This document shows, in pieces, positions 19,595-61,292 of a stretch of DNA of 64,000 bases. The first letter of the stretch is position 1; each line of letters opens with the position of its first letter. The notes beneath the pieces are model-generated. The model had not been told where the DNA came from and searched no databases. It saw only the letters and a program-made list of their open reading frames with translations. Made by a program: the position numbers and the translations under genes. Source of the DNA: a candidate division WWE3 bacterium. GTDB taxonomy: Bacteria > Patescibacteriota > WWE3 > UBA101185 > UBA10185. The DNA is taken from positions 794,919-858,918 of the forward strand of contig WJKK01000001.1 of NCBI GenBank assembly GCA_014729135.1, written 5' to 3'.

Positions 19595-20410
19595 TTATTT
19601 CTCTTCTTTATTCTCGTTCTCCTCACTTTCCTCCTTTTCCTGCTCCCGCTTCTCCTGCTCCCGCTTCTCCTGCTCCTGCTCCTCCTCAGCATCCTGCTCC
19701 TCCTCAGCATCCTGCTTCTCATAATCCTCATAACCCTTCTCAATAGCACCACACAAAACCTTCAAAATCAGCGAAGTAGACTTAATAGCATCATCATTTC
19801 CGGGAATAGGATAGTCAATCCCCGTAGGATCAGTATCAGTGTCAAGCAAAGCTACAATAGGAACATCGGTTCGCTTAGCCTCTCGTACAGCTGTTTTTTC
19901 TCGATGAGCATCAATAACAACAACAGCACCGGGCAATCCACGAATCCCAACAAGCCCACCCACCGAATTTTCAAGCTTCGTTATCTCCCTATCCAAAAGC
20001 AACTGCTCCTTTTTTGTGTACATTTCATACTCACCTGCTTCACGCTTCTTCTTCATTTTAACTAACTTATCAATATTATTCTTAATCACACGATAGTTAG
20101 TTAAAGTTCCACCAAGCCAGCGCTGATTTACATACAAAGCTTTGCAGTGTTGAGATTCCAGTTTGATAAGCTCAGAAACCTGACGTTTAGTACCTACCAA
20201 AATAATCTGCTCTCCTTTTTTGGCCGTCTCATACAAAAACTCAGCGCCCTCCTTTAGCAACTCGTGAGTTTTTTCCAGATTTATTACGTGAATATTCTTG
20301 CGAGCCTCATAGATATAAGGCGCCGCATTAGGATGCCATCTTCGAATTTGATGTCCTAAGTGAACGCCTGCATCAAAGAGTTCTTTAACTGTTGGTATTT
20401 TTAGTTTCAT
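19595..20410 (-). CDS. rpsB: 30S ribosomal protein S2 with an acidic repetitive C-terminal extension
   Basis: [33 protein letters not shown]. Start taken at MKLKIPTV, which has AAGGAGG 9 nt upstream. The C-terminal tail ([23 protein letters not shown]) is encoded by tandem DNA repeats. Confidence 0.9.
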
Positions 20411-20983: not shown

Positions 20984-21946
20984 ATGATCATAAACCTACT
21001 AAACAAAAAAAGCAAAAAAGACGAATACCTCTTCAAAAAAGAATACCACCAGCGCCTAGAGCAAATCCTTAAAGAAAAATACAGCATAGAAACAAAATTC
21101 TCCGAAAACTTCTCGTGGGGATACACCTCCACATCCACCTACATTAAAGACACCAAAGATCAAGAATTTGTTGCCAGAATCAGCGCCAACACTCCCCTAA
21201 AAGAAGCTGCGACTTTTAAAGACCTGGCCATCACCCAACAAATTGCCGACAAAATCGCAACCAGAACCTACATTCCCAACAACAAAGGAAATCACCTGAC
21301 TTACATTGACCAAGAGCGCGACTCCCAAGGCAACACCCTCATAGAAAACGCCATCCTTACCTGCTATCCGTACATTCATGGCACTCCCCCATTTAAAATG
21401 ACAGAGGACATTATCACGCAAGCGGTTGACCGACTTAAAATGATTCATAAGCTGGACCCGACGCCTATTCAGAAGGCTTTGGAAACGTATTCTTTGGAGG
21501 AGGCTTTAACCGCCGACCTGGGCAAGATTGCAGCGGTTGTGGAGGGGGTTGAAGGTGCTGACAGTGCAGAAATCAACAAAGTAGCTTTCCTCCATGGAGA
21601 CATGACACCCTCCAACATTTTGGTGTCCTATGAAAAGATTGTGGCTGTGGTGGATTTTGAGTTGGCTGTGGTGGGTCCGGTGGAGTGGGATTTGGCAAGG
21701 CTTGCGGTTTTTTCGTGGTTTCGTTTACCGGAAAATTATGATTTTGGAACAGTTTTGGATTTGATAGAGAAAACTTATAAAGAGGATTTAAAGCGTGATT
21801 TTTTGGAGGCGTTTTCACTGGAGCATGCTAAAAGCCATGCCGAAAATATTGAATCTCATAAGGATTTGCATAAAAGCAAAAGGGACTATCGAGCACAGCT
21901 GAAATTTGCTAAAAAGAAGTTAAAGCAACTGAAAAAAAGTCTTTAA
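20984..21946 (+). CDS. APH/choline-ethanolamine-kinase-family phosphotransferase
   Basis: Catalytic loop HGDMTPSNILV (HGDxxxxN) and metal-binding VDFE (the DFG equivalent); convergent with the ThyA-like operon. Confidence 0.7.
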   Translation: MIINLLNKKSKKDEYLFKKEYHQRLEQILKEKYSIETKFSENFSWGYTSTSTYIKDTKDQEFVARISANTPLKEAATFKDLAITQQIADKIATRTYIPNNKGNHLTYIDQERDSQGNTLIENAILTCYPYIHGTPPFKMTEDIITQAVDRLKMIHKLDPTPIQKALETYSLEEALTADLGKIAAVVEGVEGADSAEINKVAFLHGDMTPSNILVSYEKIVAVVDFELAVVGPVEWDLARLAVFSWFRLPENYDFGTVLDLIEKTYKEDLKRDFLEAFSLEHAKSHAENIESHKDLHKSKRDYRAQLKFAKKKLKQLKKSL

Positions 21947-23595
21947 TTTGCAGGGCGCAAAGGTTGGTCCTGCTCAAACGTAAGCCCAAGCTTCACCGCA
22001 GCCTCCGCCTTAGCCAACTGCCTCCCCAAATCACAAGCAGCTCCCAAATCGCTAACAAGCAAATCCTTAAAAATCATAGCCGACAAATCTCGTGCCGCCT
22101 TCTCTGCATGACCATCAATAGAAAACTTAGCCAACTCCTTAGTACCCTCCGGTGAGAAAAACGTCACCAAAATTTGCGAACTGTCATCCCCTGACAAACA
22201 CACCGTATAATAACCGCGAGGATCATACTGGCAAGTGCGCCCTAAATGATCATTTTCTGCCACTACGGCCAAAGCAGCCTCCCAATTAATCTCGTAAATC
22301 TCGGCAATATGGGAAATTGTGGTTAAAACACCCATCTCACAAGAAATCTTATGGGATAACTTTTTTTGAAAAGCTCGCAAGGCAAAGACGTTCAACGGCC
22401 AAGCCCCATAGATGTCGTTATTTCTGAACACGGCTGTCATGTCAAACTTCCCATCTACAACCTGACCTAAAATCATAACCATGCAAGGCACTCGCCACTT
22501 TTTGGTCTGCCCCATTTCCTTACGCTCAATATCAGAGGGGGGAAAATTGTCGTTATGCGGCTCCCATAAAACCGCCAATGCTCCCCTATCAAAGTTAAAG
22601 CGCTTTAATTTTTCCACCATGATTTTTTCCTGATCTAAGGGAATGTTTAGTTTGAAGTCAGGGTTTTTGGATTCCGGATCGAGTCCGGAAGAACGGGAAT
22701 CCGTAGAACTAGAGGCGGAATGACGGGAAAGACCTCCGAAGGAGTCTCTCCCCCACTTAAAAATTCGCTCCCCGTAAGTGTAAACCTCCTGTTTTTCTCC
22801 CGATTTGTTAGGCTCATTAGGATCAAAGAACCCCTTTATATAAAGGTCTAGCTGCTTTTTATCAAAATTAAAAAAGTCGTAAATCTCAGGACTTGCGGGA
22901 TCCTCTTCCTCAACAACAATGGAAAGGTTTTGAACCTGGCCAACCTCACCGTACATTCCGGGAATTCGACGACCAAAGCGAGTTACTGTTTTTAGAGCAT
23001 CCAACCAAGCTTCTCCAATGTATTTTCTACGGATTTTAAAAACTGACCTGTCGGTGGGAAATGTTTTAGGAGCAGCTTTTTCCGCCTCAGGAAATGTTAT
23101 AGGTTGTGTAAAGGGTTCCGTGTTTTTTGAGGCCTCATGCACCTTGGCTACTTTTCTTGCCAAATCCTCCAGAGATTCTAAACGAAAGTCATAAAAAGCC
23201 ACCTTTTGTCTTAGTAGCTCCAAAATCTCCAAAGGGATCTCCTTGTCAATAAAAGCTTTTTTTGTGTTTTTAATTGCCCAATGCGTAATATTCTCATTCT
23301 CATCCTGAACCGGCTCCACTCCTTTTTCAAAAAAATTCTTTAAAGCTATACCACTTTCCTGCCGATCTATTCCACACAAAAACAGATGCCGAATTTTTGG
23401 ATTAGCAAGAATGTTTCGCAAAAGATAGTTGATGCCTCCTTTTGTGTAGAGCTGCCCACATGCTGCAAAAGTTTGAGGAGTGAGCTTTTCGGCAACCATT
23501 TCTTTTGGCATCCAAAGTGTTGCTATTGCAGTGGAGGAGTTTAGGTTTTCCATTAGGATGCGGTCTTTGAAGTATTTCGGCCAGTTTTCAATCAC
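21943..23595 (-). CDS. thymidylate-synthase-like (ThyA-fold) multidomain protein, 550 aa, carrying an in-frame repeat-derived insertion
   Basis: The core WEPHNDN...VPCMVMILGQVVDGKFDMTAVFRNNDIYGAWPLNVFALRAF aligns with the ThyA PCH...DGKLSCQLYQRSxDVFLGVPFNIASYALL region; catalytic Cys, Arg and Asp are retained. There is an N-terminal extension of about 190 aa and a C-terminal extension of about 80 aa. Residues SRHSASSSTDSRSSGLDPESKNPD are encoded by the palindromic element at 22671-22730. Confidence 0.6.
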   Translation of the reverse strand: MIENWPKYFKDRILMENLNSSTAIATLWMPKEMVAEKLTPQTFAACGQLYTKGGINYLLRNILANPKIRHLFLCGIDRQESGIALKNFFEKGVEPVQDENENITHWAIKNTKKAFIDKEIPLEILELLRQKVAFYDFRLESLEDLARKVAKVHEASKNTEPFTQPITFPEAEKAAPKTFPTDRSVFKIRRKYIGEAWLDALKTVTRFGRRIPGMYGEVGQVQNLSIVVEEEDPASPEIYDFFNFDKKQLDLYIKGFFDPNEPNKSGEKQEVYTYGERIFKWGRDSFGGLSRHSASSSTDSRSSGLDPESKNPDFKLNIPLDQEKIMVEKLKRFNFDRGALAVLWEPHNDNFPPSDIERKEMGQTKKWRVPCMVMILGQVVDGKFDMTAVFRNNDIYGAWPLNVFALRAFQKKLSHKISCEMGVLTTISHIAEIYEINWEAALAVVAENDHLGRTCQYDPRGYYTVCLSGDDSSQILVTFFSPEGTKELAKFSIDGHAEKAARDLSAMIFKDLLVSDLGAACDLGRQLAKAEAAVKLGLTFEQDQPLRPAN

Positions 23596-23620: not shown

Positions 23621-24097
23621 TTAAGCCCTACCCCAAACAACATCTTCCGGGATTTGTGTTACAGAAACTCCTGCTTCTTTAAAAACAGGCATTGCCTCAT
23701 TTCCCGAGGTAAAGTGATCTGACATATAAAAAATTTGCACTACCCCCTCCCCTACTAGTTTCTTTGCACAATCCATACAGGGAAAACGGGTTACATAGAC
23801 CGTAGCTCCTTTTATACTGACTCCCTTTTGTTTGGCTTGATTTAGAGCGGCTATTTCAGCGTGAATAATCGGAGGCATGCCACTTTCCTGCTCCACGACG
23901 TCGCTTTGCTCCGAAATGTCGCGGGAAAGGGCATGCCCTCCTTTTGCAATTTTATTATGACCTTCGCCAATAACGACACCTTCCGACGAAACAAAAACAC
24001 ATCCCGTGCGTACATCCAGTGAAGAATTGTCACACAACAAACACGCTCTTTGCATTAAATTAATATCCTGTGAATTAAAACTCATAAAACAAACCAA
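23621..24097 (-). CDS. dCMP (deoxycytidylate) deaminase with an in-frame hairpin-element insertion
   Basis: Zinc motifs HAEIAAL and PCMDCAKKL. About 20 aa (ALSRDISEQSDVVEQESGMP) are encoded by the palindromic element at 23876-23936. Confidence 0.75.
   Translation of the reverse strand: MVCFMSFNSQDINLMQRACLLCDNSSLDVRTGCVFVSSEGVVIGEGHNKIAKGGHALSRDISEQSDVVEQESGMPPIIHAEIAALNQAKQKGVSIKGATVYVTRFPCMDCAKKLVGEGVVQIFYMSDHFTSGNEAMPVFKEAGVSVTQIPEDVVWGRA
23876..23936. repeat. dispersed hairpin element, family 3 (stem GGCATGCCACTTTCC/GGGAAAGGGCATGCC, loop ...CTCCACGACGTC...CGAAATGTCGC...), inside the dCMP deaminase gene
   Basis: The loop core recurs at 29507-29545, 29576-29636 and 50822-50868 with different flanking stems. 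Confidence 0.6.
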
Positions 24098-24137: not shown

Positions 24138-24677
24138 TCAGCGACAAGCTTTTTTCGCGAAGGGAATTTCCGCAGCCACGCTCCGCAACCTCTTAGCCAT
24201 CTCCACCGGAGCAACCTCAATATCGCAAAAATTGTAACTAAACCTAAAATTCTCATAGACCATAAACTCCGGTGTAATAGGCAACAAATGAATGTGCAAA
24301 TGCTTCAAACTACTCCCCGATTTTTTAGTCCCCTCCCGATACAAAACATTCACATCCTTGACATCACAACCTTGGCGAATAACCTCCATTCCAAGTGAAA
24401 TCATTTTATGAGCATCCCGCCAATCCTGAGGTGAAAAATCCTCCAAACGCTCAATATGCTTTTTTGGAATCACCATTAAATGGCCATCAATATAGGGAAA
24501 AAGATTCATAGTTAAAACAACATCGCCGGATTCCGCAATAATATACTTTTCCTTCAAATCACAAAAAGGGCACTTGGTTACAGAACTTGCAATATCACTA
24601 TACCAATGGGATTTGCGTGCATTCTTCTGCGCCTCCTCCGAATAAGCATGCTTTTTATTTGTGTCATCCTTTTTCAT
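24138..24677 (-). CDS. HIT-family protein (GalT/Ap4A-phosphorylase-like branch) with an N-terminal CxxC
   Basis: Histidine triad HLHIHLLP; CPFCDLKEK zinc-binding-like motif. Confidence 0.7.
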   Translation of the reverse strand: MKKDDTNKKHAYSEEAQKNARKSHWYSDIASSVTKCPFCDLKEKYIIAESGDVVLTMNLFPYIDGHLMVIPKKHIERLEDFSPQDWRDAHKMISLGMEVIRQGCDVKDVNVLYREGTKKSGSSLKHLHIHLLPITPEFMVYENFRFSYNFCDIEVAPVEMAKRLRSVAAEIPFAKKACR

Positions 24678-24734
24678 AGTTTAAAACCCAGGCAGTAGGA
24701 GCAGCGCAAAAAACAGAACGTAATAAAAGCCACC

Positions 24735-26015
24735 TCAAACATCCCCATTCAGCCGAGACCGCTCCATCAAAAACGCCTCATAACGGCTGCGATCCATACA
24801 CTCCTCAAAAATCTCCCTCACCTTCTCATGCGCCACCTTATCTATTATAGCCGACGCCGAAATATTTGTAGACTGCTTTGCTCCACGGATGACCTCACCG
24901 CCATAACTTTTCATAGCCTTATACTCCGGAGAGTCCTTGTAACCTTCATTCCAGCTTTCCTTAACCGTATAAAAAACGTCAGGCTTTAACCCATGAATCG
25001 TCTGCAAAACATCTGTCTGAGGGAAAATTGCCACATGATCAACCATATCCAAGCTTGCCAAAACATAAGCTCGCGATCTTTCCGACATTACCGGACGACC
25101 GGATCCTTTTAAACTGCGAACAGCCTCATCGGATGGGATTGCTGCCACTAAAACGTCTCCTTGCAAAGATGCCTGCTCAATAAAGCGGGCATGCCCCACG
25201 TGAAGCAAATCGTAACTTCCTGAAACTAAAACCACTTTTTTACCTTGCTTTTTGTACTTTTCGGAAAGGGTCGGCAGCTCTTTTGGCGTGTGAATGAATT
25301 TGTTGGCGTTGTAGGCAAAAAGATTTAGAGGCTTTTGCTGTCCAAAATCCACCGGTTTTAAGTTGGGCTCGGCATTAAAATTTAGGGAGGGCATGTTGTC
25401 GTTGAGGTAAGTTTGAAGGATTTGGAGAAAGCGGATGTGGGCAATGGAGCTTACCAGGCTGTTAACGCTGTAGTAGGGCTGCATTTTAGCTTCTCGGTAA
25501 GTAGCGCCACCATACATTTCTAAAACCGCTTTGTCCTGGTTGTTGCGAAGGCCATTTTCCCAGTCGTGTTCGCAGGTGTAAAAGGTTTCCGGTTGCAGCA
25601 TGATAAGAGAGGCATGCGGTCGGTCGTTGTCTACAATTGTCACATAGTCAACGTTTTTTATGTAGGTGACAAGTTCGGCTCTGATGTCTTCGGGGATTAA
25701 CGGGTAAGGCTTGCCTTTAACTCTCTTGTCGGAGGCATCTGAGGAGACGCCGGCTACTAGGATATGTCCTGCTGCTTTTGCGTCTGCTAAGTAGCGGCAG
25801 TGTCCGGGGTTGATTAAATCCCAGGAGCCTATTGTGAAGACGATTTTCTTGCCTTGCTTTTTGAGTTTTTTGCTTGTTTTTTGAAGGTCTTTGAATTCTA
25901 GGAGTTTTTTGTGGCGCTTTTTGTGATTTTTTTGTTTGGTTTTTTGGGTTTTGGGAGGTAGTTTGGAGGCTTTGTTGTGGGCTTGGTTCTGAGTTTCTTG
26001 TGCTTTGTTTGCCAT
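24735..26015 (-). CDS. tandem cytidylyltransferase-domain protein (two TagD/ECT-like CTP-transferase domains) with a Lys-rich N-terminus
   Basis: Domain 1 GSWDLINPGH...SDASDKRVKG; domain 2 GSYDLLHVGH...SDEAVRSLKG (the HxGH and RxxKG motifs of the cytidylyltransferase superfamily). The N-terminal 55 aa are K/Q-rich. Confidence 0.6.
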   Translation of the reverse strand: MANKAQETQNQAHNKASKLPPKTQKTKQKNHKKRHKKLLEFKDLQKTSKKLKKQGKKIVFTIGSWDLINPGHCRYLADAKAAGHILVAGVSSDASDKRVKGKPYPLIPEDIRAELVTYIKNVDYVTIVDNDRPHASLIMLQPETFYTCEHDWENGLRNNQDKAVLEMYGGATYREAKMQPYYSVNSLVSSIAHIRFLQILQTYLNDNMPSLNFNAEPNLKPVDFGQQKPLNLFAYNANKFIHTPKELPTLSEKYKKQGKKVVLVSGSYDLLHVGHARFIEQASLQGDVLVAAIPSDEAVRSLKGSGRPVMSERSRAYVLASLDMVDHVAIFPQTDVLQTIHGLKPDVFYTVKESWNEGYKDSPEYKAMKSYGGEVIRGAKQSTNISASAIIDKVAHEKVREIFEECMDRSRYEAFLMERSRLNGDV

Positions 26016-26151
26016 TGTAATGTGATGATATCACACAGGAAAAGTGGGAAACGCGACCAAAACAACCCTATAAGTTGAGAAAATGAGAGAAAAGAAGTAG
26101 AATTTCCCCAGTTAATCGGGTGTTGTTAGAGAAGTCAAACAGGAGGAATGA

Positions 26152-26404
26152 GATGGAAATAGGCGGAGAAACGATAGCGCTACTCGTAGGATTGGGGTTG
26201 GTCTTCGTCGGAGTAGGTATTACCCTATTGAGAAATCCCCCGGCATGGACATGGCCCCATATGACGGAAGGAGAGTTCGAAACGGAGGGGTGCCCGGAAT
26301 GCGGCTACAAGACGTCACCAAAGGACGTTTTGGGAACATACGCTTGTCCGAAATGCGGGAAAAAGGTCATTCTCATCTCCCAATGGGAAAAGGAGAATAT
26401 GTAA
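26152..26404 (+). CDS. small membrane-anchored zinc-ribbon protein (paralog 1)
   Basis: AGGAGG lies 6 nt upstream of ATG; TM helix IALLVGLGLVFVGVGITLL; C-terminal CPECG...CPKCGKK zinc ribbon. Confidence 0.45.
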
Positions 26405-26613
26405 TGCCACCGCAGTTTTGGCAGGGTCTACTAATAGCCATACCGATTGGAACCATCGTTTTCTTCCTGCGGAGAGACAGTATCGTTCATATCTCCCAAG
26501 AAGAGTGGGATGAGTTCGGATGCCCTCGGTGCGAGGCAAAAGGGCACTACAAAAAAAACGATGTCCTACACTGCGCCGAGTGTGGGAAACGTTACATAAT
26601 CGACGCAGAATAG
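26404..26613 (+). CDS. small membrane-anchored zinc-ribbon protein (paralog 2)
   Basis: TAATG overlap with paralog 1; MPPQFWQGLLIAIPIGTIVFFL TM helix; CPRCE...CAECGKR zinc ribbon. Read from the sequence because the track merges it with an upstream frame. Confidence 0.45.
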   Translation: MPPQFWQGLLIAIPIGTIVFFLRRDSIVHISQEEWDEFGCPRCEAKGHYKKNDVLHCAECGKRYIIDAE

Positions 26614-27051
26614 AAACAAGATGGGGGTCGCCCAAAGACGCTTGGGCGATCCCTGCTACCACTCCCCTTTTTAACTACTCCACATAAAACGTTTTCAAAA
26701 AGCACACTCTTTTCCCTTTTTTAAAACCATTCCATAGATTTGCACGATATCCTATAAAGTAATAAAATTGTCCCTGTCGCCAAAATTTCATTGCGAAAGG
26801 AGAAACTCGTGAGCGGAAAGACAAAAATCGTGGTGAGGTGCACTTGCTCGAAAAACCCCATATACAAGGGAAAATCGATACGAAGGGCTCAAGAAGTCTA
26901 TCAAGAGCACGCAAAGCAAGGACACCAACCTGGATTTGGTTCCTCAAAGTAGAGTATCTCGCGGGTGAGACTGCCAAAGACGTAATCGGCAAGCTCATTC
27001 GCGAGACCATCCCCCTTCCACAAACAACTTCAAACTCAAATTCCATTTTTT

Positions 27052-27129
27052 ATAAAGCGCAGAAATATCCCTTTTGAACGAATTTTGGCGTACTCGCCAA
27101 CCTGAGCAAAAAAGGGATATTTCAAGCTG
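27052..27129. repeat. 78-bp structured palindromic repeat, copy A
   Basis: ATAAAGCGCAGAAATATCCCTTTTG..CGAATTTTGGCGTACTCGCCAACCTGAGCAAAAAAGGGATATTTCAAGCTG is nearly identical (2 mismatches) to 49781-49858. It has 16-bp outer inverted arms and an inner TTGGCG/CGCCAA hairpin. Confidence 0.8.
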
Positions 27130-27291
27130 CTAAATCAAAAGGGGTGAAGCGAGAAAGGGTATGCCTGTTTTATCAGAGATCCTGACTTTCGTCAGGATGA
27201 CGGTATGAAGCTCAGGATGACGCACTACTAAAAAGGATGACGGAATACAAAATTTAGAATAGGTAAACAAGCTCTGGAGGTATGACCGGAT

Positions 27292-29448
27292 CTAAGAATC
27301 TTTAGCCTCGTCACCATCCTCACTCCCCTCAGCACCCTCCTCCAAAGGATTCTTCCAAGATGACCACTCACAATCCGGATAATTACTGCAACCAAAAAAC
27401 TCCCGACCCTTCGCCTTCTTCCTCACAACCTCCCCATCCTCACAATCAGGACACTTCATGCCAATCTTATCCAAATAAGGCTTCGTATTCTTACAATCAG
27501 GATAATTGCTGCACGCCAAAAACTTCCCATAACGCCCACGCTTCAAAATAAAATGACCATCATCACACTTATCACACTCCCCAAAATCCGTAATCTCCTT
27601 ACCGTCCTCATCAAAAACCTTATCCTCCTCCAAAGGCTCCGCATAATCACACTCCGGATAACCCGAACAACTCAAAAACTTCCCATACTTCCCCAACTTC
27701 ACAACAAGCTTATTCTTCTTACACTTGGGGCAAGTCTTATCCGTCTCCTCCAGCGTTGTAACATCCCTTTTATTAAGCTCTTTCTCCTTTTTCTCCAGAG
27801 TCTTCTCAAACGGAGTGTAAAACTCCTTAATAATTTTGTGCCAATCCTTGCCTTCATGAGCAATGGCATCCAAATCATCTTCCATTTCAGCCGTAAAGTC
27901 ATAACCAACTATTGACGGAAAGTGCTCTACTAAAAGGTCGGTTACTACATAAGCTACATCTTCAGGGATAAAATAACGACCTTCTTTGCGAATATATTTT
28001 CTTCTTTGGATTGTGGAAATTGTTGGAGCATACGTTGAGGGACGACCAATTCCTAATTCTTCCAACTTTTTTATCAGGGTTGCGTCAGAATATCTTGCAG
28101 GAGGTTGAGTAAAATGTTGATCCGTTCTTACTTCTTTTGCCTCTAGAGAAGTGCCTTCTTTTATCTCCGGGAGTTCAGTTAGCTCACCTGTAGAAGAACC
28201 AATTCCCAATTTTTCTCCAACAGCCAACCACCCTTTAAATGTAATGATAGAGCCGTTTGCTCGCAACATGTAACCTTTTTTAGACTCTATATCCACACGA
28301 GTTTGATCATAAACTGCGGGAACAGATTGGCATTCCAAAGCCCTTTGCCAAATCAATGAGTAAAGTTTGTGCTCATCCTTAGTTAGTTTCAACTTTTCAG
28401 GAGTGTTTTTAATGTCGGTGGGTCGAACAGCTTCATGCGCTTCCTGGGCTCCTTTGGATTTGGTCTTAAACTGCTTAGCTTTTTTAGGGATGTACTCCTC
28501 TCCTAGTTCTTTTTTCAAATGAGATCTGGTGCTTTTTACAAAAGCCGGCGCCAAGTTCAAGGAGTCAGTTCTGTGATACGTAATATGACCTTTCTCAAAG
28601 AGCTTTTGCGCTATGCCCATGGTCCTTCGAGCTGTAAACCCAAAAACATTAGAGGCTGCTCGCTGAAGTGTAGATGTCTTAAAGGGCTTAGGAGTCTTTC
28701 GCTTACGCTGACTCTTTTTAACTAAGGCAACCTCAAATTCGTCCTTTTCTAACTCCTTTTTAATCTTTTCAGCATCTTTTTCGTTGGAAATCTCAACCTT
28801 TTTGCCATCCTTTTTCTTTAAATCCGCCGTCAACTGCTCCTTTTTAGTGGTCAAAAAGTCAACGTCCAGTGTCCAATACTCCTCAACATCAAAGGCATCT
28901 CTTTCGCGCTCTTTTTCGACAATTAACCTTACGGCGACGCTTTGCACCCTTCCTGCGGAAAGCCCATAGCGAACTTTTTTCCAAAGGAGTGGTGACAGCT
29001 TATAACCTACAAGCCGATCTAAAACTCGACGAGCTTGCTGGGCATTTACAAGATCTTCGTTTAGCTCTGCGGGATGATCAAAGGCGTCCATAACGGCATC
29101 TTTTGTGAGCTCGTGGAAAAAGACGCGGGAGAATTTGAGATCTTTGTTTTTTTCTTTTAATAAGTGCTTTAAATGCCAGGCTATTGCCTCCCCTTCTCGG
29201 TCAGGGTCGGTTGCTAAAACCACTTCTTTTGTTTCTTTGGTAAGTTTTTGCAGCTCTTTTATAGTTTTTTTAGCTTTTTTAGGAACTACGTACTGCGGTT
29301 CAAAGTTGTTTTCTACATCTACACCGAGGTCTTTACGAGGAAGATCCCGTACGTGGCCTTTTGAGGATGTGACGGAGAATTTGTCCTTAGGTAAGTATTT
29401 AGATAGTGTTTTTGCTTTGGTTGGTGACTCTACAATTACTAGACTCAT
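27292..29448 (-). CDS. topA: DNA topoisomerase I
   Basis: Toprim N-terminus MSLVIVESPTKAKTLSKYL...GHVRDLP and multiple C-terminal C4 zinc-ribbon repeats. Confidence 0.9.
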   Translation of the reverse strand: MSLVIVESPTKAKTLSKYLPKDKFSVTSSKGHVRDLPRKDLGVDVENNFEPQYVVPKKAKKTIKELQKLTKETKEVVLATDPDREGEAIAWHLKHLLKEKNKDLKFSRVFFHELTKDAVMDAFDHPAELNEDLVNAQQARRVLDRLVGYKLSPLLWKKVRYGLSAGRVQSVAVRLIVEKERERDAFDVEEYWTLDVDFLTTKKEQLTADLKKKDGKKVEISNEKDAEKIKKELEKDEFEVALVKKSQRKRKTPKPFKTSTLQRAASNVFGFTARRTMGIAQKLFEKGHITYHRTDSLNLAPAFVKSTRSHLKKELGEEYIPKKAKQFKTKSKGAQEAHEAVRPTDIKNTPEKLKLTKDEHKLYSLIWQRALECQSVPAVYDQTRVDIESKKGYMLRANGSIITFKGWLAVGEKLGIGSSTGELTELPEIKEGTSLEAKEVRTDQHFTQPPARYSDATLIKKLEELGIGRPSTYAPTISTIQRRKYIRKEGRYFIPEDVAYVVTDLLVEHFPSIVGYDFTAEMEDDLDAIAHEGKDWHKIIKEFYTPFEKTLEKKEKELNKRDVTTLEETDKTCPKCKKNKLVVKLGKYGKFLSCSGYPECDYAEPLEEDKVFDEDGKEITDFGECDKCDDGHFILKRGRYGKFLACSNYPDCKNTKPYLDKIGMKCPDCEDGEVVRKKAKGREFFGCSNYPDCEWSSWKNPLEEGAEGSEDGDEAKDS

Positions 29449-29679: not shown

Positions 29680-31773
29680 TTATTCACGGTTCTCGGAAAA
29701 CCAGTAATCCAAGAGCGTGCGAGCAATAGGAGCAGCATCATCAGAACCCCCTCCCCCACCTTCCAAGAAAACCGTCAAAACAATTTCAGCATCCTCCAAG
29801 GGCCCCCAAACTGTAAACCAAGCATGCGTCCTTTCATTGCCTTGCGGATCAATATACTCAGAAGTTCCTGTCTTGCCGGCCAGCACCACTCCGTACTTTT
29901 CCGGAAAATCAAACACAGGGTAACCCGTTCCTCCCGGAGTAACCGCCCGTCGAAGCCCTTCACGAACCAAATCCAGAGTCTGCGGAGAAATTAAATCGCG
30001 CGCTAAAACCTCCTTTGAAGTTGCCTCCCCCGCCACCTCGGAAACCACACGAGGGCGCAGCAGCTCGCGCCCATTAGCAAAGTAAGAAGTCACCATATTC
30101 ACCTGCAAGGGAGTCGCCAAAAAGTCGCCCTGCCCAATGGAAGTGATGTAAGTGTCGCCCAAATACCAGTCTTTGTAGTCGCCATCAGGGACAAAGCCTG
30201 CCACTTCTCCCGGAATATCGATACCTGTTTTAGCGCCAAAGCCAAATTTTTTTGACCAATTGGAGATGCGGTCAATGCCTAGGCCTTCAATGTTGCCGTA
30301 GCCTCCTCCTATGGTGTAAAAGTAGGTGTCGTTGCTGACCTGGAGGGCTCTTAAGAGGTCCACTTGGCCATGCCCGTCGAGTTTCCAGTTTCTAAATGTG
30401 TAGCCTGCAACGGAAAGGTAACCGGGGTCGTTGATAGTGCTATAGGGTGTTATGGCGGATTCTTCGAGCGCTGCTGAGGCCATAACCATTTTATAGGTCG
30501 ATCCGGGAGGGTAGTTGGCGCCAATTGCTCTGTTGAAAAAGGGGTGGTTGTAGGTTTCTTCTAAGGTGGCAAGTTCGGCGGAGGTTACTCCTGAGACCAT
30601 TTTTTGGGCGTCAAAGGAGGGGTAGCTGGCTAGAGCAAGGACACCTCCGGTTTGTGGGTCTTGGGCTACAACGACTCCGGCGTCTGCTGTGGCTCCGGGG
30701 ATTTTTTCGTTTTCCGGAGTGGCGGGGCTGTTAGGGTCTGCGGAGGTGTTGGAGTTTTTGGAGGCGTCAACAGCTTTTTTCAGTTCTTCATAGGCTAGTT
30801 TTTGAAGGCCTATGTCGGCAAAAAGTTTAATGTTTTCGCCGGGAACGGGATCTTTGGTGTCAAACTCCCGGAGGCTTTCGTTGGAGGAGTTTACTTGAAT
30901 TAATCTTTGTCCGGAAATTCCTGTTAGTGGCTTGTTGTAGGAGGCTTCTAAGCCGGTTTTTCCTTCTATTAGTGGGGTTAGGCTTTCGTTGGAGAGGCCG
31001 GTGTAACCAAGGAGGTGTGCAAAGGCTTCGGGATAGTGGTAGTCGCGGGTGGGATAGGTTAGGACATCGATGGCGGGGACTTTTTGTGTTCCAAGGGAGT
31101 CCAGTAGTGAGGCGGATTCAAGCGAGAGGAGTTGATCTTTGTTAAGGTTCTGCGCAATTACAAGGGATTGAATTCCCGGTGTATCGAGTTGGGTGAGTTG
31201 AGGGACAGTCCTTTGAGGGGACAGTCCTTTCCAGGGACTGTCCTCTCCGAGGACAGTCCTCTTAAAGGACTGTCCCCTCCTCAGGTGATCGAGCGTGTCT
31301 GAGACTAGGCGTTTACAAAGAGTACGATCTTTACCCAAACTGCATCGGGACACATTAAGTACAAGGTTGAAAGTTGGGCGGTTTTGCGCAATTACTTCTC
31401 CTTTTTGATCAAAAATGACTCCTCGTGGGGCGGGAATTTCATAAGTACGTGTCCGATTTCTTTGAGCCAGTGCCTGATATTCCTTCGACTCCAAAACCTG
31501 TAATTTAAATGCTCGCGCAAAAAAAACTAAGAAACTTGCCAGCAATAAAAAAGTAAAAAACAAGAGGTGCCCATGAAAAGTTTTGCGACCGGAGTTAAAA
31601 TAGTCCTTACCTATTAGGGGATTAACCTCGTTTAAATGCGCACCCTCCCCTCCCCTTTTTAAACGGCTCCTTTTTGAACCGGACTTTCCCGGGTATTTAA
31701 AACGCAATAACCTCTTTAAAAAAGACTCCCCACCCTTTAACTCCTCAAAAAAGTTCGGATTTATTGCGTTCAT
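29680..31773 (-). CDS. mrdA: class B penicillin-binding protein 2 (elongasome transpeptidase), with an in-frame REP insertion
   Basis: SxxK (GSTYKM), SxN (VSNDTYF) and KTGT (AGKTGTSE) motifs; sits in the mreBCD-pbp2 arrangement. RRGQSFKRTVLGEDSPWKGLSPQRTVPQL is encoded by five copies of the GGAC(A/T)GTCC palindrome at 31202-31277. Confidence 0.85.
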   Translation of the reverse strand: MNAINPNFFEELKGGESFLKRLLRFKYPGKSGSKRSRLKRGGEGAHLNEVNPLIGKDYFNSGRKTFHGHLLFFTFLLLASFLVFFARAFKLQVLESKEYQALAQRNRTRTYEIPAPRGVIFDQKGEVIAQNRPTFNLVLNVSRCSLGKDRTLCKRLVSDTLDHLRRGQSFKRTVLGEDSPWKGLSPQRTVPQLTQLDTPGIQSLVIAQNLNKDQLLSLESASLLDSLGTQKVPAIDVLTYPTRDYHYPEAFAHLLGYTGLSNESLTPLIEGKTGLEASYNKPLTGISGQRLIQVNSSNESLREFDTKDPVPGENIKLFADIGLQKLAYEELKKAVDASKNSNTSADPNSPATPENEKIPGATADAGVVVAQDPQTGGVLALASYPSFDAQKMVSGVTSAELATLEETYNHPFFNRAIGANYPPGSTYKMVMASAALEESAITPYSTINDPGYLSVAGYTFRNWKLDGHGQVDLLRALQVSNDTYFYTIGGGYGNIEGLGIDRISNWSKKFGFGAKTGIDIPGEVAGFVPDGDYKDWYLGDTYITSIGQGDFLATPLQVNMVTSYFANGRELLRPRVVSEVAGEATSKEVLARDLISPQTLDLVREGLRRAVTPGGTGYPVFDFPEKYGVVLAGKTGTSEYIDPQGNERTHAWFTVWGPLEDAEIVLTVFLEGGGGGSDDAAPIARTLLDYWFSENRE
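31202..31277. repeat. REP palindrome array (5 copies of GGAC(A/T)GTCC) inside the mrdA coding sequence
   Basis: gggacagtcc tttgag gggacagtcc tttcca gggactgtcc tctccga ggacagtcc tcttaaa ggactgtcccc, read directly. Confidence 0.85.
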
Positions 31774-38191: not shown

Positions 38192-38266
38192 GCCTGGATA
38201 GCTCAGTGGTAGAGCAATCCCCTTGTAAGGGATAGGTCGTGAGTTCAAATCTCACTCCAGGCTCCA
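38192..38266 (+). tRNA. tRNA-Thr (anticodon TGT)
   Basis: Manual cloverleaf: acceptor GCCTGGA/TCCAGGC, D GCTC-AGTGGTA-GAGC, anticodon stem ATCCC/GGGAT with loop CTTGTAA, T-loop TTCAAAT, CCA encoded. Confidence 0.85.
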
Positions 38267-38579
38267 GAGGCCCCGCTGAAAGCGGGGGCGATGGCTTAAC
38301 AAAACACGAGCTTTCCTTTTGGACAGCAATGTTCAAGCAAAGTGTTTTGTTATGCTCGAAATCCGCCGAAGGCGGATTGAGAAACTTGTGATAAATTGAA
38401 AACATAAGCACCCACCCCAAGCCGGGGTACCGAACTGTAAAGTTTTTGCAAAAAACTTTATCAGCTTAAGCAAACGCGTAGCGTTTGTTTATGGCTAAAA
38501 AGTAGCAAAGCTACTTTTTATAGTCTTGAGTACCTTGTCAAGGTTTGTGATAAATTGAAAATATGAATACCTACCTCTA

Positions 38580-38665
38580 GCCGGGGTACCGAAGCGGTCA
38601 AACGGAACTGTCTGTAAAACAGTCGGCATTAGCCTACATAGGTTCGAATCCTATCCCCGGCACCA
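38580..38665 (+). tRNA. tRNA-Tyr (anticodon GTA) with a long variable arm
   Basis: Acceptor GCCGGGG/CCCCGGC, anticodon stem ACTGT/ACAGT with loop CTGTAAA, variable arm CGGCATTAGCCTAC, T-loop TTCGAAT, CCA encoded. Confidence 0.85.
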
Positions 38666-38804
38666 GCAAAAATCGCGAGTGAAGCGAGTATTTTTGCTGG
38701 CTCAAGCAAATGTGAGCGAATGCGAACATTTGTTTGTTGCCTCACAAGTTGTACTCAACTTGTGAAAGTGTGAAAGAAACGGTTTTATTAGATACAAGTT
38801 TTTA

Positions 38805-38880
38805 GCCCACTTAGCTCAGTTGGTAGAGCAACTCCATGGTAAGGAGTAGGTCGGCAGTTCAATTCTGCCAGTGGGCTCCA
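38805..38880 (+). tRNA. tRNA-Thr (anticodon GGT)
   Basis: Acceptor GCCCACT/AGTGGGC, anticodon stem ACTCC/GGAGT with loop ATGGTAA, T-loop TTCAATT, CCA encoded. Confidence 0.8.
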
Positions 38881-38934
38881 GAAAATCCACAACCACATTC
38901 CGCAAACAACCACCCAAGAATTTGCACCAAAAAC

Positions 38935-38966
38935 AGGTTGCTCGAGAACTCAAATGCATCTATAAT
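38935..38966 (+). promoter_or_regulatory. sigma70-like promoter upstream of tRNA-Trp (TTGCTC-N17-TATAAT)
   Basis: ttgctc gagaactcaaatgcatc tataat, read directly, about 25 nt upstream of the tRNA-Trp 5' end. Confidence 0.45.
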
Positions 38967-38990
38967 GCTTACGCTAAAAAGGTTTTACAA

Positions 38991-39064
38991 GGGGACGTCG
39001 GTTAGTGGTAAACCATGGGACTCCAAATCCCAAACCGGGGGTTCGATTCCCTCCGTCCCTGCCA
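38991..39064 (+). tRNA. tRNA-Trp (anticodon CCA)
   Basis: Acceptor GGGGACG/CGTCCCT (G1-U72 wobble), D GGTT-AGTGGTA-AACC, anticodon stem TGGGA/TCCCA with loop CTCCAAA, T-loop TTCGATT, CCA encoded. Confidence 0.8.
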
Positions 39065-40658: not shown

Positions 40659-43600
40659 TCAACGGACAACAGCAGAGCCACCCATACCATTCCCGCGAAC
40701 ATCCGGTGAATGTGACTCAAAAGCCTGAGCCGGGCGCAAACGATACTCCCCCGGAACAGAAGCCTTTACCAAGTACACATATTCATAAACTCCCGCCGGT
40801 AAATAATCCAACAACAAACGCATAGAGTCCGGATACATCTCAAATCCCGAAGCATAAAAAGGAAAACCCTTGGAAGCCCCTTCCGAAACTGAATCCCTAA
40901 ACTCAGAAGGCCCAAGCCGAGACTCATTTTCTAAAGTATCATTAACCCCCTCCAAACCGGCTGGGAAATAATCCTCAACCACAACATGCCTGCGCAAATT
41001 GGGGACAGCCAAAGTTAACCGAACTGCATACGACTCCCCCACTTCAAAATTTAGGGGCGAAACCTTGTTACCCTGCAAATCAAAATATTCGCGAACAATT
41101 CCAATGCCCTCAGAATCTGCAACAATTTGATCAAAAGGCAAAATCTTATTTACAACCAAACTATAATAAGCACTTCCACCGTCAACAAGTTTAATTTGTG
41201 CACGCTTTTCACCGGCCGAAAGGTCTGACAAAGGAATCTCACCAAAAACAGAACTCCGGCCTTCCTTAAAGTTCAACGTGCCGGACAAAATTTCCGCTTC
41301 AACAGCTTCAACAGCTTCAGCAGAATCAGCAGAATCAGCGTCCTCCCCTACCACCACCCGAACATCAGAGGGTCTAAACTTAACCCCACGAGCAAGTCCA
41401 TTTTCCAACAAAGCAGCAACTCTTAAGGCATCCGAATAATTAGCAAAATAAGAGGCTTCACCCTGCAGGAGGTGATTCACCGCCAAATCCGCTACCAACG
41501 AATCGGGATCCGTCTTGTTAAACGCCCTCAAAATCACAGCAGTTGTGCTCATGTCATTTCCGTAAAACCAAACGGCCTCCGGATAATTCCAAAAGATTCT
41601 TTGAGATGCCAAGTCCGCACTTTGCAACAGGTCTGACTTCAATTGATCAACATATTTACCCCATTTACCTCCCTGCGCCTTCATAGCAAGAATCATGTAA
41701 CCCTTGGAAACATCCTTTAACGTAGAACGCCGATTGTACAAATAAGACAAGGTGCCGCTGGTATCACGCCCTACAGAGGACAAAGCAAAGGCAATCATAG
41801 CAGCCTGATCAGGTAGGAAATGCTGAACCTCAATAAGCTTAGTATTCAGGTAGTTAGCAGCCCTTTCAACCCCAACGGAATCCACGCTAAAACCGACTTC
41901 TTGAGCCCCGGATAAAGCTACAAGCACCTGCGAAGTTACATAAGTAGAACTTTCACGACTTCTTGACGTATATCCCCATCCCCCGTCCGAAAGGCGATAA
42001 TCCTCCAATGAGTAAATTGTTTTCTCAATTTTATCAGCATAAGACTGTACAACCCCCTCATCCGAACTCTCCACCTCCTTTTTATATTTATAAATGTGCA
42101 AATTAACCAACAACTCCCCCGCTAAACTCAAACTGGTTTCACAAGGATCCTCCTCCAAAAACTCGTCCGCGATGTCCTCGGCCATAGTCAAAGGCGCTCC
42201 AAAAACAGAGGCCTTCACACTTCCAAAACGGGTGTCTGCAACATCCTCAATAGTAAAAACTTCATAAGCAACATTCTTTACATTATTTGAAAACGACTCT
42301 ACGACCTCTAATCCATAAAGATACACCTCTAAAGCCTCTCCCAAGCGATCGACAAGAACATCCCCTTCGTAAACCTCAAAAGTTATATTTACCGCCTCTA
42401 AATCATTTCTAGCGGGAACTTCCACAGGAAAGGATATCTTCTGCTCAGAACCCCCTGCTACATCAACTACGGAGGAGCTGGCGCCCGAAAAAACTAAATC
42501 AGGAGCAAGTGCCTTAACAGAATATCGTCGAGAGACTTCGGTATTATTGTGAACTACCAAACCAAGGTCAAATTTATCCGTACTGCGAACAAATCTTGGT
42601 AAAGCAGATAAAGCAAAGCTGTCCAGGCTTGCCGTAAAAGTGAAGACAGCTTGACCAAATCCGTCAGAAGTACGCGCCAGTCCAAGAAGATTCCAGCGAG
42701 TAATGCTGTCAGGCAACTCAAAATCTATCACAGCTTTACCGGAGGCATCTGTTGTCACATCCACCTCCCAATGCGCTACATCCGAAAAGTTTTCACGGGT
42801 CAAATCAATATAGTCACCCCCCGCGCCACCCTTAGCTCCGGAGCCTCCCTTGGCGCCAAGCTCCGTATTAGCATTAACACGATCCCAAGAAGCCGTTAAA
42901 GTTTGTGTAGTATTAACACCCCAAAATCTCTTTGAATAAAAGTGATTAAACGCATTCCTACGCTTAACGGGACTCATCGTAAGAAGCGCATCATCCACCA
43001 GCGCCAATGTTAGATTTGCAGCAGCAACAGGATTCCCCTCTTTATCCGTTACTGTAATTGTGGCAGTACCCGAATCCCCCGGAGCATAGCCCTCCTCCCC
43101 TGGCTCTATATCGACATTCAAAAGATGATCAGTAACATCCACGTTTAAAACCTTCACACCCATTCTAAACTCCGGCGGATTGTAAACATCAGTTCCCGGT
43201 GCAACCAACAGAGCATTAACGTAGGCATTGGGAGCATAAACATCTTTAACCAAAAGCTTCATCAGATCTGCACTGGAGTCAGGACGCGCAATCTTGTAAT
43301 CTAAAACTCCTTCAGCCTCTACCGTTAGTAAAACCAAAGGCTCTTCCAAAGTAGAAGTCGTAATTATTTCGGCAGTATCTCCTATGGAATATTCTTCTTT
43401 ATCTAAAATCAACTTTACTCTGTCATGGTTTTCGCGCTTCCAATAGCCGGAATCCCGGGAAGCCACATAAAACGTGGTATCTGCAGCAGAAACATTTCCA
43501 ACGGAATCGGTGCTTACAACTTCTATAATGTGCAAGCCTCCTCCGGAGGGCATGAAAGCATAAGAAGCATCGCCCTGATCATCCGTTGTAACCCGATCCG

Positions 43601-46600
43601 AAGTAACTAAAGTATCCTCATAACTGGTTTTGTAATAGGAGCTGCCCTCGTTATCCTTAGTCTTAACCCTGAAATACTTGCGATTGTAAACGTTAACCGT
43701 AGCCGGAATACCGGCTTTATCCTCGGCAAAGACATCCACAGTCTTAATAGCAAACTCGGACTCCTCCCCCTCCACACCAACATAGGAAAGGGGCTTAACT
43801 CCGGTGTAGTGCTCAGCCATGTGGGCTACAAATTCGGTAGTTCCCGTAAAACGCTTACCACTTTCACCGGTAACATCAGCTTCAAAAGTGTAGATTTTGC
43901 TCATGCCGGAGTCCCCCGAAGTGTTAACGCCATAACTGAAAACGCCTAAGTTGTCGGTAGTTCCGGATCCCGAGGAAACTTTCTCCTCCTCAAAACCGCG
44001 CCAAACAAGGTCATCCCCAAAATAACGCTTTGAAGAATAAAACGAGTATCCGGAAAGTCCCGAAGGATTAAACACATATTTACGCTTATATAAACGGTAA
44101 TCTAAAGGACGCCCACTTAGAGGAGCACCATAAAAGTAATTAGCCTTTGCTTGCAATGAAACGTTTTGCCCATGAATAACTTCCTTGGCAGGGCCTTGTA
44201 CAGTCACCTCAAACTCGGGAACCTTATATTCCTCCACGCGAACATCTGCTGTGTATAAAACATCCTTGGAAGAGGCTACGTTTTTAGTGAACTGAAGCTT
44301 TAAGATGTAAGCACCGGGAGTTAAATCCTCGGGAAGCTGAACCGTCCCTTTAATGGAATCAGTAACATTTTCAAAAAGATGCGTGTAAATGGGGGCATCA
44401 CTGGAGTAGCGCTTTTCCAGTTGCATGTACAAGTTTAGACCGGGAGTAGCGCTTTCAGGGGTGCCGTCCTCACCGGAGTTTACTGAGGCGTCTGAATCTG
44501 CAATGTAATCAAAAGAAGTGGGAGTGTTTCGTCGAACAAAAGCATTAAAATTAAGCTCATTTCCGGGACGATACAAAGTCTTATCCGTAACAATAAACCC
44601 TTTGTAATCCAAAGCTCCATAGGAGGCAGCCGTATAACCATATTCAGCCTCATCAAACTGGTGCGGAGCTATCCCTTCATGCCAGCTACCAAGGCTCACG
44701 CCAAATTGGTCACCCTTTTCAACCAGAACAAAGCTGTAATCCCCTATTAGAGGTTCTTTTTGCCACCAAACTCCATCGGAGTTAGTTACTCCGGTTTTCA
44801 CTGGCTCTAAAAGATTCTTATCATGCGTAATTCCTAAAGAACGGCACATTTCGGGATCTTTAAACACTTTAACCGTATTGCCTTCCCTAACATCTCTGTT
44901 GTCAAGACTTGCAGCCCATACAAAAAAGCCGTCCTGATAGTCTTTCACGGTAACTGCTGTGTTTGTAACTGCAAAAACAAATCCGGTGTAATCTTTTCCG
45001 TCGTTAGCTAAAACGTCCAAATAGTAAAAACCGGGATCCAAATCCTTTTTAGCATCGCGCTCAAAACTAAACAACACATCTGTAGGAACATTAAGATTCA
45101 AGTCAAGAGGAGTGTCCCAAGAACCTTCCAAAGTGATGTTTTCTTTTTCCAGCCAGGCTCGATTTATGCTGCCCAAGGAATACTGACAGGTTGTGGCCAA
45201 ACTTTGAAACTCACTTGTTGTAAGCGAATAAAGATTGTATGTAAGCTTGTCTGCATTTGTCACACGAGTAATAACACGTGTATCTAAGTTGTCCGAAAAG
45301 TTCTTAATGCGGGAGTAGCCGGTGTTCATGGTTACAGCTATCTCATAGGGCTTGGTTGTAAATTCAAATGTGTGAGTTGCTCCAATGGCGCGGCCATAGC
45401 GATCCGGCGTGCCGGCAGGAATGGTTAAACGATACGTTGTGGAAGGTTTTAAATAACGGTTTAAAACAAAGGTCTTCCCACGAGAACGCGTGTAGCCCAA
45501 CGCCTCGACAGAACCGGGAGAGTCTCCGGTGAGGGCCGTTAGAGATAGGTGCTTTTCCAAAGTCTCACCATCCATGGGAGAATTGAAGTTTAAGTTTAAG
45601 TTGTCCTGATAACTAATTTCCTGACCGTCTTTAAACTTTCCTTGCCCTTTTGGCAGTGAGATGCTGTTAAACCCGGGAGCATCTGCCGTCTCAAAAGTGT
45701 AAGCGTATTCCGTGGGAGCAGGCGCATTTCCGCCATAACCTAAAAACCCTGAATTAACACGCGCGGAATATTCCGTTAAAGGCTTCAAGGTGCCAACCGG
45801 ATAGAAGTCGACTTTTTGCTGCCACTGCTCTTCCCAATCGTTGTAGTAGTAAGACTTGTTGTCTGCAGAGGTACGGTTAGAAAAGACAGCACGATAAGGA
45901 ACAGCCTCTTTTGTAGCCTTCTCCGTAAAAGTAAAGTTATCTAAAAGACTTTGCCGATCTATAGCCTGATTAAAATAAAAAGTAATAGGGCCTTGCGGGT
46001 TTATGTCACTAGGTTTTGAAGCACCTCCGGAGACGCCTCCTAAATCACCTTCTGCATACAAAACGGCCGGGACAAAGTTGGTGAATTCAAATGAGTAGCC
46101 CTTCTTAAGAACTCCTCCGTCTAAAGATTTCAGGTCTTGGTTTAACGAAACTGTGTATTTCATGCCCTTTTCAAGATTTTCGGGCTCTATTAGATAGGCA
46201 GCACTACCTACCCATTTTCCGGTACCTTCTATTTCGGGGGATATCGTTATGAAGGAGGCTATTTCATCGTTGTAGTAGTTTGCGGAGGTGGTGAGGTCTA
46301 TCTTGGGAGTGGCTCCGGAGGCATCAGGCCGTTGCATAGACTTTGAAAACATTAGCACAATTTTTTCTGCAGGCTCCTGTGTATTTCCGGTAGGAGATGC
46401 AAAAGCTACTTGCGGGTGAGCTATGGTTGTAAAAGCGGAGGTGTAGTCCTTTGCAAGTCCTCTTGAGTTTTTTGCACGCGCTTCTTTGGTTAGACGCACA
46501 GTTACTAAAGTGCTTCTACTTAAAGACTCGTTTGGCGTAAATGTAAGTGTAGAGGGGCTATCCCAGGAGATTGTTCCGGCAACTTCTTTAGAGTGAGTCT

Positions 46601-61127: not shown

Positions 61128-61292
61128 TATAGTAAGCGAGCCCCTCTAGTAACTGTGGAAAAGTTGTTGACTTAAGCACTTGCATGGGATACTATTTATA
61201 TAACCTTGTTATTTGGCTCTATAAAGGTTTGTGACAAGGCTTTGAAAAACAATGACGACCAACAAAATGCCGGTTTAAAGAAAGAAAGAAAC

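Follow-up and report, generated by a model that had tools for sequence, protein, structure and literature searches.

A three-domain protein of candidate division WWE3 with a methanogen-type ThyA core between an MtrA-like domain and a DUF4346 domain: a probable thymidylate synthase

What a thymidylate synthase fold does between two long stretches of protein that do not belong to it is the question raised by one gene of a candidate division WWE3 bacterium. The gene lies in a window of 64,000 nucleotides, the whole stretch of DNA analysed here (assembly GCA_014729135.1, contig WJKK01000001.1, positions 794,919 to 858,918), where it occupies positions 21943..23595 on the reverse strand and encodes 550 amino acids from a GTG start. 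An earlier, sequence-only reading had recognised the fold in the middle of the protein and had left both flanks unexplained. Scans with the Pfam and NCBIfam families divide the protein into three: a domain like MtrA, the corrinoid subunit of methyl-tetrahydromethanopterin:coenzyme M methyltransferase; a methanogen-type ThyA core; and a DUF4346 domain. It is reasonably probable, to judge from sequence comparison, that the protein is a synthase converting deoxyuridine monophosphate (dUMP) to thymidine monophosphate (dTMP), probably dependent upon methylene-tetrahydrofolate, and that its accessory domains may complete the carrier site of a minimal core or aid its assembly.

An identical protein is present at NCBI as 'hypothetical protein GF360_04175 [candidate division WWE3 bacterium]', encoded on an 864-kb contig. 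A search identified 95 close homologue clusters, full length, and such plentiful homologues show that this is not a chance open reading frame (ORF). The GTG start is supported by the N-terminus, MIENWPKYFKD, since homologues begin with the shared pattern M-x-x-x-WPxYFKD. An AlphaFold2 model of the 550 aa protein, built on 36 homologues, has a predicted local distance difference test score (pLDDT) of 88.8 and a predicted template modelling score of 0.67, and is confident except for residues 286-315, where the pLDDT falls below 50. Residue conservation and covariation were assessed in 235 distinct full-length relatives, pooled from the homologue, N-domain-profile and species-genome searches.

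The ThyA core covers residues 185-447 (positions 22255..23043, reverse strand). The region of 190-470 proposed at first is therefore real but narrower, and the remainder, previously put at 190 N-terminal and 80 C-terminal residues, is indeed not ThyA, with sizes of about 184 and 100 residues. The fold itself is borne out by family, profile and structure comparisons. TIGR03283, the methanogen-type thymidylate synthase, matches residues 188-439 with an E value of 1.4e-29 over model positions 3-199 of 201. Profile alignment with hhalign aligns the core to E. coli ThyA, and a Foldseek search with the AlphaFold2 model finds many solved ThyA structures at E ~1e-11 with a probability of 1.0; other ThyA-fold enzymes, such as MilA (5jnh) and AfhB (9iqu), are also matched at E ~1e-11. 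The motifs from which the fold was first recognised are all present: PCM at residues 370-372, FRNND at 390-394 and GAWPLNVFAL at 397-406.

The catalytic machinery of E. coli ThyA has its counterparts here. P370-C371 corresponds to the Pro-Cys motif P145-C146, followed by M372 in the place of H147. The catalytic cysteine (codon at 22483-22485, reverse strand), already noticed as retained, is conserved in 234 of the 235 relatives. Nearly as constant are Arg391 (E. coli R166) and Tyr274 (Y94), each in 233, Asp394 (D169) in 221 and Tyr434 (Y209) in 218, while the position of Arg337 (R126) is Arg or Lys in 222. As regards folate contacts, Asp394 is the counterpart of the residue that contacts the pterin, and its conservation upholds that part of the expected site.

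The residue at the position of E. coli N177 determines the base in ThyA and in T4 dCMP hydroxymethylase, which has the same fold: uracil where it is Asn and cytosine where it is Asp. The corresponding residue is Asn402, and the position is Asn in 233 relatives and Asp in 1, so dUMP is the expected substrate. Of the three substrates first suggested, dUMP, deoxycytidine monophosphate (dCMP) and cytidine monophosphate (CMP), only dUMP is therefore favoured, also on account of a dCMP deaminase that is adjacent or fused and of folate-cycle neighbours; dCMP and CMP are unlikely.

A Ser-rich, low-complexity insertion of 39 residues (residues 283-321, positions 22633..22749, reverse strand) sits in a loop ahead of a conserved DQ motif. 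It has no counterpart in close homologues and is predicted from the model to be disordered. The loop that holds it has a median length of 7 residues but counts 43 here, and in 28 of the 235 relatives it reaches at least 30.

The first flank can be accounted for. Residues 3-171 match the MtrA models PF04208, NF002126, NF002128 and TIGR01111. A profile of residues 1-160 (positions 23116..23595, reverse strand) matches the solved cytoplasmic MtrA homologue 5laa with an E value of 4.5e-21 at positions 5-147, the whole of this Rossmann-type domain. From these profile matches, the homology of residues 1-160 to MtrA is not in doubt. There is no membrane anchor, the MtrA-like domain continuing into the ThyA core. 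Among the neighbouring genes checked, in the window and in the related loci shown, no other mtr family was matched.

In MtrA, His84 ligates the cobalt, Glu54 hydrogen-bonds His84 and Asn55 binds a corrin side chain, while the cobalamin tail is fixed by Asp17, Lys52-N, Thr53, Gly57 and Asn64 and sandwiched by Tyr18 and Val61 (PMC4915002). These two sets of residues have had different fates. The position of His84 is Ser81 (codon at 23353-23355, reverse strand), with Ser in 213 relatives, Thr in 15, Ala in 6, Cys in 1 and His in none of the 235. Glu54 has become Lys52, Lys or Arg in 189, and the position of Asn55, residue 53, is variable. As the cobalt ligand has been replaced throughout, cobalamin binding of the His-on kind used by MtrA is ruled out for this domain. 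The tail pocket is retained: D11 (MtrA D17) is Asp in 138 and Glu in 58, T51 (T53) is Thr in 118 and Ser in 94, G54 (G57) is Gly in 228 and N61 (N64) is Asn in 221. The conserved residues of the domain include W5, W28, Q48, Y50, R60, N61 and S81, and its best-conserved motifs fall in the segments that line the cobalamin site of MtrA (compare PMC4915002). Residue for residue, then, the domain is seen to keep a conserved pocket where MtrA holds the nucleotide tail of cobalamin.

The second flank, residues 448-550 (positions 21946..22254, reverse strand), is a PterinBD-DUF4346 domain. PF14251 matches residues 458-543 at 36 bits against a gathering score of 29.6 (E 1.2e-8), over model positions 2-86 of 86. 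Conserved residues include D458, R460, E531, Q542 and D543. Modelled alone (pLDDT 87.9), the domain has three strands then two helices, ending in a long helical hairpin. A profile search of the PDB finds no significant relative, the best being the WGR-like N-terminus of 2ra8 (E 0.019), and Foldseek returns nothing significant from the PDB (best E 0.048) or from viral models (best E 0.039). Homology of the first DUF4346 strands to the C-terminal strands of E. coli ThyA is not claimed, a forced alignment having given low-confidence columns.

The same domain also ends the archaeal dihydropteroate synthase-like family TIGR00284 (model positions 418-497) and the 390 aa MtrA-like family NF002128 (positions 287-369), in the latter directly behind the MtrA-like part. 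On the evidence of the family models, DUF4346 is a recurrent C-terminal add-on of pterin-linked modules. On a Methanomicrobiales-like contig (L004:5052-6465) the TIGR00284 protein is split into a 333 aa catalytic gene and an overlapping 154 aa DUF4346 gene. Such splitting from the gene for the dihydropteroate synthase (DHPS)-like protein explains the label 'dihydropteroate synthase' on many DUF4346 proteins that stand alone in methanogens; apart from this contig, the neighbourhoods of stand-alone DUF4346 genes were uninformative.

Both flanks are thus explained, contrary to the sequence-only reading, which was right in that they lack counterparts in canonical ThyA and do not resemble dihydrofolate reductase (DHFR). 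Insertions inside a canonical ThyA are ruled out, since they are separate domains that both occur elsewhere without ThyA. A DHFR-like N-terminus is likewise ruled out: no DHFR family in Pfam or NCBIfam matched the protein, and the domain found there is MtrA-like.

Mean-field covariation on the relatives, a small analysis with an effective number of about 190 sequences, gives some indication of how the domains are arranged. The top 60 covarying pairs include 48 that are intradomain, as would be expected, 4 between ThyA and DUF4346 (427-476, 375-508, 242-481 and 241-494) and 3 between the N-terminal domain and ThyA. This modestly suggests that DUF4346 packs on the catalytic sheet, near the strand after Cys371. 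No pair among these 60 points to direct contact between the N-terminal domain and DUF4346. The linker, residues 161-184 (positions 23044..23115, reverse strand), has a conserved P165 and an FPxD motif (P180), with pLDDT 68-84. It covaries with the N-terminal domain (62-162, 66-162, 124-166 and 93-169), and therefore probably packs on it.

Neighbouring genes are consistent with a role in thymidylate synthesis. In the window, a gene of the dCMP/cytidine deaminase family (positions 23621..24097, PF00383, E 3.4e-17) is on the same strand 25 nt upstream of the thymidylate synthase gene. Neighbours were counted over 79 related loci. A dCMP deaminase homologue occurs in 53 of them, 35 of which have it within 100 bp. 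For thymidylate kinase, direct search gives 13 loci and clustering 20, and in 7 archaeal loci the gene is typically an immediate neighbour, the median gap being 4 bp. FolD is present in 7 loci and serine hydroxymethyltransferase (SHMT) in 5, adjacent in 3 of them; FolA is in 2, both archaeal, as a separate gene. In a survey of 4,581 candidate phyla radiation (CPR) genomes, folA, glyA and folD were present in 54.8%, 81.3% and 79.7% (PMC11974145). A natural fusion (P0270, 733 aa) joins an MtrA-like domain, ThyA core and DUF4346 to a C-terminal dCMP deaminase. Taken together, the neighbours, the folate survey and the fusion show that these loci are a classical thymidylate module, running from dCMP to dUMP, dTMP and deoxythymidine diphosphate, with the folate cycle.

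The architecture is widespread. A profile of the N-terminal domain finds 1194 representatives at 50% clustering with E<=1e-3, 114 of them below 1e-30. Among the best 150 matches most are 460-540 aa with the domain N-terminal, the rest being mainly 73-420 aa, which may be fragments. A scan of one genome per species yields relatives from 208 genomes; each of the 80 best is full length. The CPR lineages concerned are WWE3, Shapiro-, Collier-, Nealson-, Buchanan-, Morani- and Abawacabacteria and Paceibacterota, and those of the DPANN archaea are Woese-, Nano- and Aenigmatarchaeota. In a rough tree, 17 of the 21 archaeal sequences fall in one clade. One 862 aa relative (P0233) carries two tandem MtrA-like domains, with an acidic low-complexity linker between them, ahead of the ThyA core and DUF4346.

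The most likely function, on these sequence features, is that of a thymidylate synthase acting on dUMP. The dUMP would be supplied by the dCMP deaminase encoded upstream. Cys371 would attack C6 of dUMP, with Arg391 and Arg337 holding the phosphate and Asn402 reading the face of the uracil, while Asp394 would keep the one-carbon carrier's pterin ring in place and Tyr274 would assist in removing the C5 proton. As to the identity of the carrier, the product and the roles of the accessory domains, we infer the following. The probable donor is 5,10-methylene-tetrahydrofolate, its one-carbon unit coming from SHMT or FolD, and the reaction would yield dTMP, which would go on to thymidylate kinase, and dihydrofolate, which FolA would recycle. 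DUF4346 would sit on the catalytic sheet in the place of the C-terminal part of canonical ThyA, and the MtrA-like pocket could accommodate the pterin carrier's tail or some other nucleotide-like ligand. In this way the two appended domains may compensate for the folate-contacting elements that the minimal core lacks. They are favoured as contributors to the carrier site because DUF4346 follows pterin-linked modules and covaries with the catalytic sheet, and because the MtrA-like pocket is conserved.

Several points weigh against this proposal. The family scores are low: TIGR03283 gives 103.1 bits against a cut-off of 174.55, and PF00303 gives 22.2 bits against a gathering cut-off of 24.3, which several relatives do pass. 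Two of the phosphate-binding arginines stand, R391 and R337, but E. coli R127, the second phosphate-binding Arg and supplied by the partner subunit, is Gly338 here and Arg in just 59 of the 235 relatives, and no counterpart of E. coli R21 was identified in the profile alignment. The core type is that of methanogens, which use methanopterin and not folate, and this makes the carrier uncertain. No SHMT was found by tblastn anywhere in the 64-kb window. The role given to the accessory domains is drawn from homology, conservation and the covariation of about 190 effective sequences. Finally, two archaeal relatives of about 395 aa, P0169 (L091:6001-7188) and P0213, keep the MtrA-like and DUF4346 domains and no longer have the stretch that bears the catalytic Cys and the FRSND motif. 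These may be pseudo-enzymes, or may hint that the accessory pair has functions without thymidylate synthase catalysis.

A serious rival, in itself unlikely, is that the protein is a thymidylate synthase whose accessory domains make no contact with a cofactor and have a purely structural or regulatory role, serving assembly or stability or sensing a nucleotide (dTTP or dCTP) allosterically. DUF4346, which terminates in a helical hairpin, comes behind domains of two kinds, ThyA and DHPS, each of which is an obligate oligomer. In MtrA itself, a nucleotide-like moiety is held by the pocket that the MtrA-like domain conserves, and the variants with a dead core have kept both domains. Against this, the many invariant polar and aromatic residues in both accessory domains point to ligand binding rather than to a scaffold, and the association of DUF4346 is specific to pterin-linked proteins.

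It is improbable that the carrier is methanopterin-like or otherwise not a folate, with its aryl-ribosyl-phosphate tail recognised by the MtrA-like and DUF4346 domains. In favour of it, the nearest family is that of methanogen-type ThyA, the accessory domains elsewhere belong to methanopterin-linked proteins (MtrA itself and the archaeal DHPS-like enzyme of methanopterin synthesis), and the MtrA pocket binds a base-ribose-phosphate moiety. This is opposed by the FolD, FolA and SHMT neighbours in several loci and by the commonness of folate-cycling genes in the CPR (PMC11974145), and no methanopterin genes were seen in the loci examined.

More doubtful is the idea that the His-less MtrA-like domain and DUF4346 form a cofactor module, for a corrinoid, a flavin or an unusual pterin, that changes the chemistry of ThyA and so provides a third route to thymidylate, besides those of classical ThyA and ThyX, in CPR and DPANN. 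This would be new chemistry, and only then would the protein be of high interest in this respect. Its specific form, a mechanistically new synthase in which the MtrA-like domain carries a His-off corrinoid or another redox or methyl cofactor that donates methyl or hydride, with a product other than dihydrofolate, is more doubtful again. The N-terminal domain is homologous to a corrinoid protein over its full length and retains the tail pocket. Some corrinoid proteins function without a His ligand, and ThyA-fold enzymes that use flavin and not folate have recently been solved (9iqc and 9iqu, from the Foldseek list). The cobalt-ligating His, its Glu partner and the corrin-binding Asn are nevertheless all replaced, the pterin-binding Asp of ThyA is retained and no corrinoid-handling genes were seen nearby, while FolA, SHMT and FolD as neighbours fit the classical reaction.

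The least probable reading is a dUMP hydroxymethylase or other C5-pyrimidine modifier that feeds a modified-base or sugar-nucleotide pathway of the neighbouring kinase, nucleotidyltransferase, HIT and NUDIX genes: ThyA-fold hydroxymethylases and hydroxylases (5jnh, 9iqu) do score equal to ThyA in the fold search, and the operon with nucleotidyltransferase and HIT genes (NUDIX in 5 of the 79 loci) and an APH-type kinase on the opposite strand is conserved, but the thymidylate kinase, FolA, FolD and SHMT neighbours and a distribution that is wide and single-copy-like among minimal genomes agree with a housekeeping dTMP synthase, and the uracil-specifying Asn is invariant.

A folate-dependent thymidylate synthase with accessory domains at the carrier site remains the preferred reading, and it has consequences for the annotation of these organisms. 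Thymidylate synthesis is essential. Textbook thymidylate synthases are of only two enzyme types, ThyA and ThyX. The three-domain architecture appears to be a common thymidylate synthase of two ultra-small, host-dependent radiations, the CPR and DPANN. A literature search found no paper that describes or tests it, and where papers refer to thymidylate synthase in CPR or DPANN, the architecture is not described. It is visible in precomputed Pfam annotations, and some pipelines label relatives 'thymidylate synthase (methanogen type)'. Since members such as this one fall below the curated cut-offs of the hidden Markov models and are labelled 'hypothetical protein', metabolic reconstructions can wrongly score dTMP synthesis as absent, and the same annotation gap can affect how folA, glyA and folD are read in CPR and DPANN. 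The ligands of the accessory domains, once found, would give DUF4346 a function and explain how a minimal ThyA core is competent.

Beyond the deaminase, the surroundings of the gene have features of their own. An APH-type kinase gene (20984-21946, forward strand) converges on its 3' end. Further upstream, 24138-26015 on the reverse strand encodes a HIT protein resembling ATP adenylyltransferase and a tandem RfaE-domain-II-like nucleotidyltransferase, the latter with a TIGR02199 match of 203 bits, over the cut-off. Around the deaminase and synthase genes these form a conserved CPR cluster, and the gene order is also found in relatives. At one locus (L009:3740-6004) a single 754 aa fusion protein combines the kinase, nucleotidyltransferase and HIT domains, and there is a NUDIX gene in addition. 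At a syntenic locus (L001) topoisomerase I and the nucleotidyltransferase have an SHMT gene between them; the same slot in the window (26015-27292) has two small overlapping ORFs on the forward strand, 26120-26404 and 26245-26613, with CxxC...CxxC zinc-ribbon motifs and hydrophobic stretches.

Elsewhere in the window, the gene for ribosomal protein S2 ends in an acidic repeat tail (19595-19720, reverse strand) that is encoded by tandem repeats of 15 and 18 nt (19634-19720). Within a 697 aa ORF at 29680-31773 on the reverse strand there is an imperfect 16/32-nt tandem repeat of 2.5-3.9 copies (31201-31280). Four tRNA genes are clustered at 38192-39061 on the forward strand and nothing else in the window matches Rfam. 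A giant ORF, 2150 aa long, occupies 40659-47111 on the reverse strand. At the right end, a forward-strand ORF of more than 941 aa (61176-64000) runs past the window; it starts with a helix-turn-helix motif, is then Thr/Gly-rich and probably surface-exposed, and accounts for the raised G+C and strong AT skew of the last 3 kb.

Compared with known systems, the protein is closest to the methanogen-type thymidylate synthase, the archaeal ThyA of about 200 aa represented by TIGR03283, which is the best family for residues 188-439 and of which M. jannaschii MJ0757 is an example. In both, the core is short and lacks the C-terminal segment found in canonical ThyA, and the catalytic set of Cys, Arg, Asn and Asp is the same. 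The 550 aa protein differs in its 160 aa MtrA-like front, its 100 aa DUF4346 rear and its 39 aa disordered insert, and its family is found in CPR bacteria and DPANN archaea with folate-cycle neighbours, not in methanogens.

Canonical ThyA (E. coli b2827; PF00303) has the same fold, and residues corresponding to its C146, R166, D169, N177, Y94, Y209 and R126 are conserved; both are also linked in function to FolA, SHMT and dCMP deaminase. Identity is about 18%, with Gly for R127, Met or Leu for H147 and no counterpart found for R21, and DUF4346 stands in the place of the C-terminal 45 residues. In the bifunctional DHFR-thymidylate synthases of protozoa and plants, which are among the fold matches through their synthase half, a thymidylate synthase is likewise fused to a domain linked to the pterin cycle, but there the domain is DHFR rather than MtrA-like. 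The ThyA-fold pyrimidine hydroxymethylases and hydroxylases (MilA, 5jnh; the phage dCMP hydroxylase AfhB, 9iqu) have the same fold and similar Foldseek scores, but those that act on cytosine have Asp at the N177 position, in contrast to the Asn and the thymidylate-synthesis context of the three-domain family.

The accessory domains have known relatives of their own. MtrA (5laa, 5l8x, 8q3v) is homologous over its entire soluble domain, and its tail-fixing D17, T53, G57 and N64 correspond to the largely conserved D11, T51, G54 and N61. It differs in its His84 and Glu54, which are Ser and Lys here, and in its Asn55, which has become variable, and the MtrA-like domain is here fused to a ThyA core, with no other mtr genes nearby. 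Both TIGR00284 (the MJ0301 type) and NF002128 end in DUF4346, as the 550 aa protein does, with different catalytic partners. TIGR00284 has no MtrA-like domain, whereas in the three-domain protein the ThyA core is placed between the MtrA-like domain and DUF4346.

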